Shown here piece by piece: positions 31,448-35,413 of a stretch of 64,000 bases of DNA. The stretch comes from Candidatus Poseidoniaceae archaeon (GTDB taxonomy: Archaea > Thermoplasmatota > Poseidoniia > Poseidoniales > Poseidoniaceae): positions 8,758-72,757 of the forward strand of contig JBMYNT010000001.1 of NCBI GenBank assembly GCA_049598575.1, given 5' to 3'. The first letter of the stretch is position 1. Each line of letters starts with the position of its first letter. The notes under the pieces were generated by a model that was not told the DNA's origin, did not search any database, and saw only the letters and a program-made list of their open reading frames with translations. A program made the translations under genes and the position numbers.

Positions 31448-31902
31448 ATGACTTGGAATGTGTAGATGAGCCCAAGGAATGCGTGAATCATCACCAAGGC
31501 CATCATCATATCCGATGCACGCCCATGCTTTGTCCGTTCAACCGTGAACGATTCATTTTGTTCTTTCAATTCAGCAGTTTTGCGGCCATGACGTACAACC
31601 AACCAGAGCAGGACCAAACCGACAGGGCCAGTGAAACCATGCAGATTCTGCGGAAGGAGATCGGATGTCCAATCATCGTTGACGATTTTTCCGGAGATGG
31701 CACGAGCTAAAAAAGCGATGATTGCTAAGCAGATTCCAGTCCAAAGTAACCACTCGCCATGCCGCTGATGACGAGCAATTGCCTGCTTGCGCTCATCACC
31801 TCGGAGCGTCATTCCTTTTTTTCTCCAGCCGTATTGTCGAATGAGCCACAATACGAAGATGGTTGCAAGAATTGGATGGATAAGCATGATGACCGTACGC
31901 AT
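31444..31902 (-). CDS. Membrane protein (4 TM)
   Basis: ORF 31444..32025 with start trimmed to MRTVIMLIHP; the upstream 41 codons are Pro/Ser-rich and would share a CATG start with the divergent gene. Confidence 0.4.
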   Translation of the reverse strand: MRTVIMLIHPILATIFVLWLIRQYGWRKKGMTLRGDERKQAIARHQRHGEWLLWTGICLAIIAFLARAISGKIVNDDWTSDLLPQNLHGFTGPVGLVLLWLVVRHGRKTAELKEQNESFTVERTKHGRASDMMMALVMIHAFLGLIYTFQVI

Positions 31903-32023
31903 TACCACATCCACTCCTCCGCTGTTTCCTGCGAGGCTTGACTTCCTTGAATTGGTTTCTCTTGTGCTTGTGACCCTAGCGGTGAGTTCAAAGGTTGGAT
32001 GACGAGGGAAAGGCGGGGGCGCC

Positions 32024-35000
32024 ATGCAAGAATCTTATCTTGAGGCATGTCTTGAAGCAGGATTCAAGACGATTAAGAATCGACGGCTAAATGCTGTCGG
32101 TAAATGCCCTGAGTATACATTAATGGATAAACCATGGAAAGAACTGGTCAAACTTGCCGTTCTTGAGACCGAAATTCCAGGCCAAGATGAAGATGGTGAA
32201 ACCATTGCTCCGTCGCCACGTTTCCGTCGCGGTCGTCGTCGTGGTCGCCAACAATCGACCATCCCATCTCCAACGGATATTCAATCAATGACCGAGGAAA
32301 CTCCAGCGCTGCGGTTTGCTCTCCTTTTGGTCAATAAGTTCCTTCACGCTGAACAATGGGAAGAAGGCGATTATGCATCTCTTGAAACCGAATTGCGTGA
32401 GGCTTGTCTCGCTCAAGGCGTGCATTCGGTTTGGCATGAAATGGCAAAGAGAAGCGATCTATTTGGTCAATTTTCTGCGTGTCCAATCGCAGAATCCAAA
32501 TCTACTTCGAAGAAAAAGACGCTGGATTTGTCCGAAATTGCCATCGATCCGTTTGATGCCACATCTTGTCTTGATGTGTTCAAATCGATTCCGGATGAAC
32601 AGTACAGTGCCGAAGACCTCGTGTCAATGAAGCGTTTAATCAAGCGACTCTCCTCAGGAAAGTGGCCAAGCGTTGAATCAAATCTGTTGGAATTTGAAGG
32701 AAATCTTTCATTGGTTTCTCTGTTAATTGCTTTGAACACCCATAGTGCAACCGACGTGATTCTTGGACGACTACGGAAGGCGAACAAATCACTCGCAGAA
32801 CGATACGAGCTTGCTATGATCCTGACCAGCGATTCGATTGAGTGGAGTGATGCTTATCTTACACAGAACGATGATGATCTAGGCAAGGCACTTCTCGAAT
32901 TGGCGTGGTTGAATGGTCCGTTGGATCGCATGAGTCCGAAAACATCCCAGTTGGAAATTGGCCTCGAAATCCTCATCAATGCTCAAGCACCAACAAATCG
33001 AGTTGATGTTGTACGATGGAAGATGCTTCAGCACTACGTGGAAGAAGCTCGAAGTGACGATGCTTTGGAAATCATACAATCCATCTCCCTTGAACACGAT
33101 TCTGATGCATCAGAACTGCTGCCGCTCTTGATTCAACTGAACCATCCCGATGCTTATACCTGGCTCGAGGCCAACATGAACAACATCGATGAAGGAGGTC
33201 TGGTCTCCATTGCTCAAGAAGGTGCATTACCGACGTCGCTTCGAGCCAAGGGTTTGGTTTTACTCCGAAATCAAAACGGTGAAGGCTGGACAGAGGTCCA
33301 ATCTCTTGCCGTTCATATCTTTGTCCAGACTCTCAACTTGGATGAGTTGGCTACCATTTTGCTTGAGGATGAACTTGCTATTCCTACGCATCCATTCGAG
33401 ACACTCATCGTTGCCCACCTTTTGAGTGCAAGTCATGATGAGGCGAACTGGAAATTGGCTCGAAGTGCACGAAAGAAAGCGCTGCAAGTGGTTCAATCGA
33501 CGGATGTACCTACTTCAATCAATGAAGATGAATACAAGTTGTTGCTCTTGCTTGAGGGGCGCATAGAGGAATCTGTTAGCAAACTTGAGTTGACCGATAC
33601 GTTACCAAAGAAGGGAATCCTAGCAGTCAATCAAATCGTCAACGCCCTCTCGTCGGGTGGTTCTCATCTCGTTGATGAGAAACACCTCAGCAACGTCATT
33701 GAATCCTTGGAAGAGGGCGAAATGACCGATATGGGAGAAGCACTCATGCGAACAATCGTCTCGAAACTTCGATTGAACAATGTTCGTCTTTCTCTCGAAC
33801 GGGGAGATAATACGACCCAAGTCATTTCCTTGCTTGAGACCGTTTTGACGCAGCCGTCAATTCCTTATCCCATCGTTGATGGCGTTCGTGAGTTGATGTA
33901 TGAGTTCGATCTGGGAATCGAATCGCTCGTTCAATGGTACCAATCCCATCATCCACGTTCGATTTGGGCCCTGCTTGCACAAGCGACGCTCGATGCATCA
34001 AGAGGCAAGAATCTATCTGCCGCACGACTGTTCAAACGCTCAGCAGATTCTGGAGAGTTTGCTTACGATGAAGAAATGATGCTCTACCGAAAGGCGTTGA
34101 TTCACTTCGCATTCGACAAGAAATGGGGAGAGGCGAAGCAACTGCTGTCCGAGCATCCGAACCTGCGTGCAGCGATTACGAAGCGATTCCAATTGTATCT
34201 CGACGTGTCACACAAAGCATCGATTCAAGAGACTGCTCAGGCAACATCGATGTTGAAGAATTTCGTCAAGCGACAAGAAACCATTGTCGAAGAGACAGAA
34301 GAAGGCGAGAAAACGAGAACAAAAACCATCTTCAAAGAAGATGAACTTGACCTTCTCCACACCTATCCAGATGAGCACCCGAAACCATTGCCGAAAGAAC
34401 CGTTTACGGGTCGTCTACTTGCTGCTACGAATGCTTTGCAGCGTGACTACAGAACACAAAGTTCGAAGTCGTTTGATCGTCGATACCGTGACATCATGTT
34501 GATGCGCAATCCCGATGCGATGGAAGTCCATACACTTGCTCAACAAGCGAGTGAAACGTCGCCTCTGGATGCTCTTCGCATCCTTGAGCGTGCACAATTG
34601 TCTGGTCGTTTCAAAGACCGAAACAAATCCTTTGCGAACTTAGAATTGGTATTGTTCCGCCGACATCAATCCGATATACGCACATCGGATCGAAGGTACC
34701 TCAGACATCTTCCACTCAAGCCGCTTGTTTTGGTGGATACAAACATCGTCATCGATGCTTTGTATCAACGTATTCAAGAAAAGCTCAATCGTTCAAATCA
34801 CTTTGAAGATTCAACCAATCAGCGGTCCCATTTTGCAGGCTATCTTCTCTACTTAGCAGCGAACGACAAGGTCGACCTCTGGTTGCCGAAGGTTGTTCGA
34901 AGTGAAGTTGAGAACATCGCTCGTTCCATCGATGATATACGTTCGAGGTTCGAAAATGCACTCGTTGACAGCGAGGTTTTGGAATCAACCATGTCTCCCG

Positions 35001-35413
35001 AAAACATGAAATCAATCGTAGATGAGATTATCTTCGATTTCAGCACGTGGGCTGGTAATTCAGATGAAATCGAAGCCGAGGCTGTAAGCGATGAAGTGAA
35101 GTCTTCGATGGATGCGTTCCTTACGCAACACAATGAAATCTACGACGAATTAACAAAAATGCGTCAGCATTACGAGGGCAAGAACATTCGAACCGAAATT
35201 GATGGCAAGAAGATCTATCCTCAACACCCCGATCGAAAGATTATGCAATACGCTTCGGTACTCTCCAACCGCCCAATTGACAACGTTGGGTCAATTGTTG
35301 TAGCGACCCATGATGGTGATTTCACCGTTGTTGCTCGAGCATTCGAAGAGCGCTTTGGCTTCGGTATTGCAAAGAACAGTCGCACGCTAAAGCAATGGCT
35401 TCGAGAGTCATGA
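32024..35413 (+). CDS. Large (1129 aa) alpha-helical-repeat protein with C-terminal split PIN-domain nuclease
   Basis: About 870 aa predicted helical (TPR/HEAT-like) followed by VLVDTNIVID (Asp1), PKVVRSEVENI (Glu) and VVATHDGDF (Asp3/4), the PIN catalytic tetrad, with an insertion of about 100 aa between the Glu and the DGD. Confidence 0.65.
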   Translation: MQESYLEACLEAGFKTIKNRRLNAVGKCPEYTLMDKPWKELVKLAVLETEIPGQDEDGETIAPSPRFRRGRRRGRQQSTIPSPTDIQSMTEETPALRFALLLVNKFLHAEQWEEGDYASLETELREACLAQGVHSVWHEMAKRSDLFGQFSACPIAESKSTSKKKTLDLSEIAIDPFDATSCLDVFKSIPDEQYSAEDLVSMKRLIKRLSSGKWPSVESNLLEFEGNLSLVSLLIALNTHSATDVILGRLRKANKSLAERYELAMILTSDSIEWSDAYLTQNDDDLGKALLELAWLNGPLDRMSPKTSQLEIGLEILINAQAPTNRVDVVRWKMLQHYVEEARSDDALEIIQSISLEHDSDASELLPLLIQLNHPDAYTWLEANMNNIDEGGLVSIAQEGALPTSLRAKGLVLLRNQNGEGWTEVQSLAVHIFVQTLNLDELATILLEDELAIPTHPFETLIVAHLLSASHDEANWKLARSARKKALQVVQSTDVPTSINEDEYKLLLLLEGRIEESVSKLELTDTLPKKGILAVNQIVNALSSGGSHLVDEKHLSNVIESLEEGEMTDMGEALMRTIVSKLRLNNVRLSLERGDNTTQVISLLETVLTQPSIPYPIVDGVRELMYEFDLGIESLVQWYQSHHPRSIWALLAQATLDASRGKNLSAARLFKRSADSGEFAYDEEMMLYRKALIHFAFDKKWGEAKQLLSEHPNLRAAITKRFQLYLDVSHKASIQETAQATSMLKNFVKRQETIVEETEEGEKTRTKTIFKEDELDLLHTYPDEHPKPLPKEPFTGRLLAATNALQRDYRTQSSKSFDRRYRDIMLMRNPDAMEVHTLAQQASETSPLDALRILERAQLSGRFKDRNKSFANLELVLFRRHQSDIRTSDRRYLRHLPLKPLVLVDTNIVIDALYQRIQEKLNRSNHFEDSTNQRSHFAGYLLYLAANDKVDLWLPKVVRSEVENIARSIDDIRSRFENALVDSEVLESTMSPENMKSIVDEIIFDFSTWAGNSDEIEAEAVSDEVKSSMDAFLTQHNEIYDELTKMRQHYEGKNIRTEIDGKKIYPQHPDRKIMQYASVLSNRPIDNVGSIVVATHDGDFTVVARAFEERFGFGIAKNSRTLKQWLRES
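34721..35410 (+). other. PIN-like domain (split by insertion)
   Basis: Catalytic-residue motifs as described for the parent CDS; coordinates computed from residue positions. Confidence 0.55.

Follow-up and report, generated by a model that had tools for sequence, protein, structure and literature searches.

VapC toxins of the VapBC/FitAB type (PDB 3zvk, 4chg, 6a7v and 6sd6) are stand-alone proteins of ~130-150 aa encoded with an upstream antitoxin, and a glutamate in the helix after strand S2 is the mark of the group to which they give their name (PMC5499597). The same group includes DUF4935 (PF16289, PIN_12), uncharacterised bacterial proteins of ~350 aa in which a long helical insert after S2 has been described (PMC5499597). 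In SMG6, SMG5 and EST1 a long helical scaffold, 14-3-3-like or TPR-like, precedes a C-terminal PIN domain, the acidic site of SMG6 being intact; PRORP couples PPR repeats to an NYN metallonuclease, HARP is a minimal PIN_5 RNase P, and Nob1, a PIN domain with a zinc ribbon, is the 16S/18S rRNA 3'-end endonuclease and the archaeal precedent for a housekeeping PIN protein. Here we describe a large protein from a marine archaeon that is best read as a new family and architecture inside this known nuclease superfamily.

Poseidoniales (marine group II) are among the commonest archaea of the surface ocean, are uncultured, and carry many conserved genes without an assigned function. In the window, a 64,000-nucleotide stretch of a Candidatus Poseidoniaceae genome, the ORF list and translation give a single 1129-aa reading frame at the position reported in the preliminary description (Table 1). 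The chosen start codon is backed by the homologues, which keep the first residues of the protein, and the start is therefore right. GC content is 47-51% across the window and that of the gene matches its surroundings; together with the taxonomy of the homologues, this overturns the halophilic, haloarchaeal setting first proposed and rules out a haloarchaeal origin.

We found a relative in 162 GTDB species genomes, and the best 80 of these 162 are all Poseidoniales. An exhaustive HMM search through 1.84 billion representative protein sequences returned 216 matches, ~28 of them full-length and the rest apparently fragmentary. Neither that search nor the best 80 of the 162 GTDB relatives held a homologue from outside Poseidoniales, and by these homology searches the family is restricted to the order. 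Scans of the full protein against Pfam, NCBIfam and PADLOC yielded nothing relevant, so the family is without a model in these three collections, and public records name its members 'hypothetical protein' almost everywhere; IMG automatically labels some members or fragments 'predicted nucleic acid-binding protein', 'LabA/DUF88' or 'TPR repeat protein'. A literature search found no paper tying PIN domains to Poseidoniales and none relevant on an archaeal TPR protein with a C-terminal PIN domain. The earlier impression that the architecture falls outside known archaeal families is thus borne out by these searches and names.

Table 1. Features of the PIN gene and its divergent upstream region (coordinates within the window)
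Feature	Coordinates	Strand	Properties and basis
DUF4079-like small membrane protein, ~152 aa	31444..31902	-	ATG at 31902; divergent neighbour
Divergent intergenic spacer, 121 bp	31903..32023	.	Alignment of 13 Poseidoniaceae loci
Complete gene	32024..35413	+	1129 codons plus stop; product 128 kDa, pI 5.3; full-length homologues 1090-1170 aa
N-terminal helical cap, residues 1-49	32024..32170	+	Model secondary structure; E3 and C9 nearly invariant
Disordered arginine-rich loop, residues 50-80 (SPRFRRGRRRGRQQ)	32171..32263	+	pI 11.2; candidate nucleic-acid contact
Predicted TPR-like alpha-solenoid, residues 81-747	32264..34264	+	~35 helices; invariant W112, C128, W137
Charged beta-hairpin, residues 748-772	34265..34339	+	Model strands 749-758 and 761-770
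Basic helical linker, residues 773-895	34340..34708	+	pI 9.7; model; highly conserved
Predicted VapC-like PIN domain, residues 896-1129	34709..35410	+	AlphaFold2 model and motifs
D905-T906-N907, predicted first catalytic Asp	34736..34744	+	End of strand 1 (899-904); codons checked
E961, predicted catalytic Glu	34904..34906	+	Helix 956-965 after strand 2 (951-953)
Acidic helical insert, residues 966-1055	34919..35188	+	pI 4.25; six helices; model
D1070, predicted third catalytic acid	35231..35233	+	Start of helix 1068-1082, after strand 3 (1062-1064)
D1097-G-D1099 (ATHDGDF), fourth acidic position	35312..35320	+	After strand 4 (1088-1094)

The structure was predicted with AlphaFold2 (mean pLDDT 83.2, and 82-83 across the model evidence for the PIN fold). 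After the helical part of the protein, an alpha/beta domain spans residues 899-1129 and shows the Rossmann-like alpha/beta/alpha arrangement of a PIN domain; on this model, the last 234 residues adopt a PIN fold of the VapC type. The translation contains the motifs VLVDTN, SEVEN and ATHDGDF. The VapC-like group has four conserved acids, an Asp after S1, a Glu in the S2 helix, an Asp after S3 and an Asp or Glu after S4, and D905, E961, D1070 and D1097/D1099 take these places in the model. D905, T906, N907 and E961 do not vary among homologues (75 of 75), nor do D1070, D1097 and D1099 (74 of 74), counted over species-level homologues whose overall identity falls as low as 25-38%. A PIN domain with its complete acidic set, as originally recognised from the motifs, is therefore upheld by the fold of the model and the invariance of the candidate catalytic residues, with one correction: checking of the codons places the first catalytic Asp at D905 rather than D904. 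Because the acidic residues occupy canonical fold positions and the domain superposes closely on VapC, we infer that their side chains converge into one site in the predicted structure.

None of the Pfam, NCBIfam or PDB profile searches assigned a significant PIN profile to the window's copy, and PDB profile searches with full-length and C-terminal alignments recovered chance matches and no PIN structure; the PIN call therefore rests on the predicted structure and the motifs. Pfam scans of C-terminal fragments of the homologues gave PIN_12, PIN_3, PIN_4 and PIN_8, all sub-threshold, which is suggestive and does not prove membership. PIN_12 was the profile matched by the largest number of family members (6 of 16 C-terminal fragments, best E 8.5e-5), all of these matches falling short of the Pfam threshold (one, for instance, at 14 bits where the cut-off is 32) and the window's copy being unmatched.

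The PIN domain is split. From E961 to D1070 there are 109 residues and the corresponding distance is 49-71 residues in Nob1 and SMG6 (PMC5499597), so the true excess is ~40-60 aa. The insertion noticed at the outset is thus real, with modelled helices at 969-1051 between the two acids, but its excess length is well short of the ~100 aa first quoted. This acidic segment varies more than the core of the domain, yet F976, W1009 and F1032 within it are invariant.

The ~890 residues ahead of the PIN domain are, in the AlphaFold2 model, alpha-helical and largely a TPR-like solenoid, in keeping with the ~870-aa all-alpha TPR/HEAT-like body first proposed; the sole exception is the beta-hairpin at 749-770, which qualifies the 'all-alpha' part of that description. 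The hairpin sits within the best-conserved stretch outside the PIN domain, and the basic linker that follows carries the motifs YP..LP.EP..GR..AA, ERA and RR.LR.L.L.P, with Y781, L789, P790, G796, R797, E855, R856, A857 and R890 invariant. Near the N-terminus, the model drops below pLDDT 50 at residues 50-78 of the arginine-rich loop, in which R66, R71 and G74 are nevertheless conserved in 65-72 of 75 sequences; we regard this loop as a candidate site of nucleic-acid contact, and the conserved basic linker as a second candidate for nucleic-acid binding. A Foldseek search of the whole model against the PDB returned only generic solenoids, at TM-scores of 0.1-0.2 and with large rmsd, and no specific structural relative. 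Full-length divergent homologues gave faint TPR, PPR or ARM matches in Pfam and nothing beyond them.

The gene lies in a conserved block in the order cobalamin adenosyltransferase, NUDIX, DHH-like, DUF4079, PIN gene, isocitrate dehydrogenase (IDH), FtsZ and RadA, and it diverges in step with its block neighbours (Spearman rho 0.80-0.96). The most persistent adjacency is to the divergent DUF4079-like gene (69 of 83 loci), whose Pfam match is sub-threshold and which is the membrane-protein neighbour seen initially. By contrast, the SAM methyltransferase (TPMT) first described as a flanking gene adjoins the PIN gene at no more than 31 of the 83 loci, and on this ground we rejected a functional link to it. 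We also considered an 'RNA-decay cluster' of the NUDIX, DHH-like and PIN genes and did not adopt it, as the whole 15-kb block is syntenic; at the synteny breaks (loci L002/L003 and L074/L075) the PIN gene parts from the NUDIX and DHH-like genes. An RNase H gene adjoins it in one lineage, and Rfam and tRNA scans placed only two tRNA genes in the window, both far from the PIN locus. We read the conserved neighbourhood as general core synteny with little functional signal.

The two divergent genes were originally described as sharing a CATG at their starts. That overlap stems from an over-extended ORF call: the DUF4079 gene starts 121 bp away, and in relatives, where the called product measures 155-160 aa and the spacer 87-120 bp, the upstream extension of the ORF suffers frame shifts and loses its ATG. 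Because this N-terminal extension is not conserved, we dismissed the CATG as a regulatory feature. The spacer itself contains conserved blocks, CTTGAAT/GTTTCTCTT at 31946-31963, CGGTGAGTTCAAAGG at 31980-31994 and GGGGGCGC at 32015-32022, and judging from their conservation it probably holds the promoters and leader for both genes.

Based on these results, we consider it reasonably likely that the protein is a cytoplasmic, metal-dependent endonuclease and a vertically inherited core protein of Poseidoniales. In the mechanism we propose, D905, E961, D1070 and D1097/D1099 would bind Mg2+ or Mn2+ and the PIN domain would cut RNA, single-stranded or structured, in the manner of those VapC-group PIN domains that have been characterised; by that analogy the substrate is probably RNA rather than DNA. 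The solenoid, the arginine-rich loop and the basic linker would bring into place either a specific RNA or a partner, for instance a ribonucleoprotein, and the acidic helical insert may serve as a gate to the active-site cleft that it adjoins. From the distribution and context of the gene, which is core and syntenic, we infer a constitutive enzyme with a role in housekeeping RNA processing or turnover rather than in conflict, the neighbourhood pointing to no particular pathway. The sequence changes far more quickly than those of the neighbouring genes (median identity 37%, against 88% for IDH), an uncommon pace for an enzyme central to RNA processing and one that counts against this explanation.

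That the enzyme acts instead on DNA, with the PIN domain cutting flaps or ssDNA in repair, recombination or replication while the solenoid binds partners, seems to us rather unlikely. The PIN-like superfamily does include FEN-type DNA nucleases (PMC5499597) and RadA is encoded 8 kb downstream, but the RadA linkage belongs to the general synteny, a match to FAN1 most likely concerns the TPR region of FAN1, and the nuclease is a VapC-type domain with an S2-helix Glu and without a helical arch or H3TH; characterised members of the VapC group are RNases (PMC5499597). Within RNA metabolism, the surveillance role already raised in the preliminary description would suit a convergent archaeal analogue of eukaryotic scaffold-PIN factors for RNA surveillance or processing (SMG6 and PRORP, for example) that acts on ribosome-bound mRNA or on tRNA/rRNA precursors; such an analogue would share with them the plan of a helical-repeat region ahead of a C-terminal PIN-like nuclease. 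The fold matches include Ski3, CNOT10 and further TPR scaffolds of RNA decay; these and the RNase H neighbour in one lineage fit such a factor, which we nonetheless judge unlikely, given that the TPR matches are generic at the low TM-scores and large rmsd reported above, that no EST1, 14-3-3, PPR or PRORP profile matched, that the PIN domain is closer to VapC than to SMG6/PRORP-type factors, and that we saw no linkage to ribosome or tRNA genes. The boldest form of this idea, to which we likewise assign a low probability, is that of an independently evolved scaffolded PIN endonuclease in essential RNA processing or surveillance, a convergent counterpart of SMG6 and PRORP, in which the solenoid and arginine-rich loop would attach to a ribonucleoprotein, for example the ribosome or a precursor RNA, and the acidic insert would act as a built-in, antitoxin-like lid gating the active site.

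The housekeeping nuclease that we prefer must also be set against readings in which the PIN domain is inactive or serves in conflict. The greater part of the protein has a fold of the kind used in protein interactions, as would suit a non-catalytic scaffold whose PIN domain does no more than bind protein or RNA, like those of SMG5, Utp23 and Chp1. Inactive PIN domains typically lose their catalytic acidic residues, whereas here the four acidic positions together with T906 and N907 are invariant despite identities of 25-38%, and we see only a slim chance that the domain is inactive. A defence or abortive-infection effector, the role raised by the preliminary description, would be a PIN RNase held silent by its scaffold and released upon infection. 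A large, fast-evolving and lineage-specific protein whose acidic insert could serve as a built-in inhibitor would fit that role, but the gene is order-wide, found in 162 GTDB species genomes within one conserved housekeeping block with which it co-diverges, its composition is not anomalous, PADLOC-DB 2.0 gives no match, and neither the window nor the relatives' loci showed antitoxin, mobile-element or defence genes nearby. We regard a defence function as very improbable.

Recognition of a scaffolded PIN nuclease gives a concrete hypothesis on Poseidoniales RNA metabolism, and the union of a TPR-like solenoid with a VapC-type PIN domain defines a family and an architecture that current profile libraries have missed. 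The protein may also have converged on the design of eukaryotic scaffold-PIN factors, and its gene could be used to mark the Poseidoniales lineage. It is, however, one of many PIN proteins still to be characterised, and its features so far suggest no mechanism without precedent.

Comparison with the known systems places the nuclease domain nearest to the VapC group. Its four acidic residues lie at the same fold positions as in the VapC toxins, including the S2-helix Glu, but the Poseidoniales domain occupies just the last fifth of a 1129-aa chain and bears an extra acidic helical subdomain of ~40-60 aa or more. The gene is core chromosomal and has no antitoxin: none of its immediate neighbours is of the RHH, AbrB, Phd or HTH type, the upstream gene being the divergent membrane protein. 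DUF4935 shows the same kind of split in its PIN domain, but its members are bacterial, place the PIN domain at the N-terminus before an alpha/beta region, and have no TPR scaffold.

Among the scaffolded nucleases, the likeness to SMG5, SMG6 and EST1 proposed earlier stands for the architecture, with the same order of parts, and fails at the level of sequence, the Pfam profiles (EST1, EST1_DNA_bind) of the EST1/14-3-3-like TPR domain that precedes a PIN_4-type PIN domain in those proteins being unmatched; since the homology searches gave the family no members outside Poseidoniales, any such resemblance would be convergent. PRORP offers a similar joining of helical repeats to a PIN-like metallonuclease, but the Poseidoniales protein lacks the central zinc module, its nuclease is of VapC rather than NYN type, and the sole PPR match in the family is at E 0.39 in one homologue. 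Compared with Nob1, it lacks the zinc ribbon, is seven times larger and shows no sequence-level relationship.

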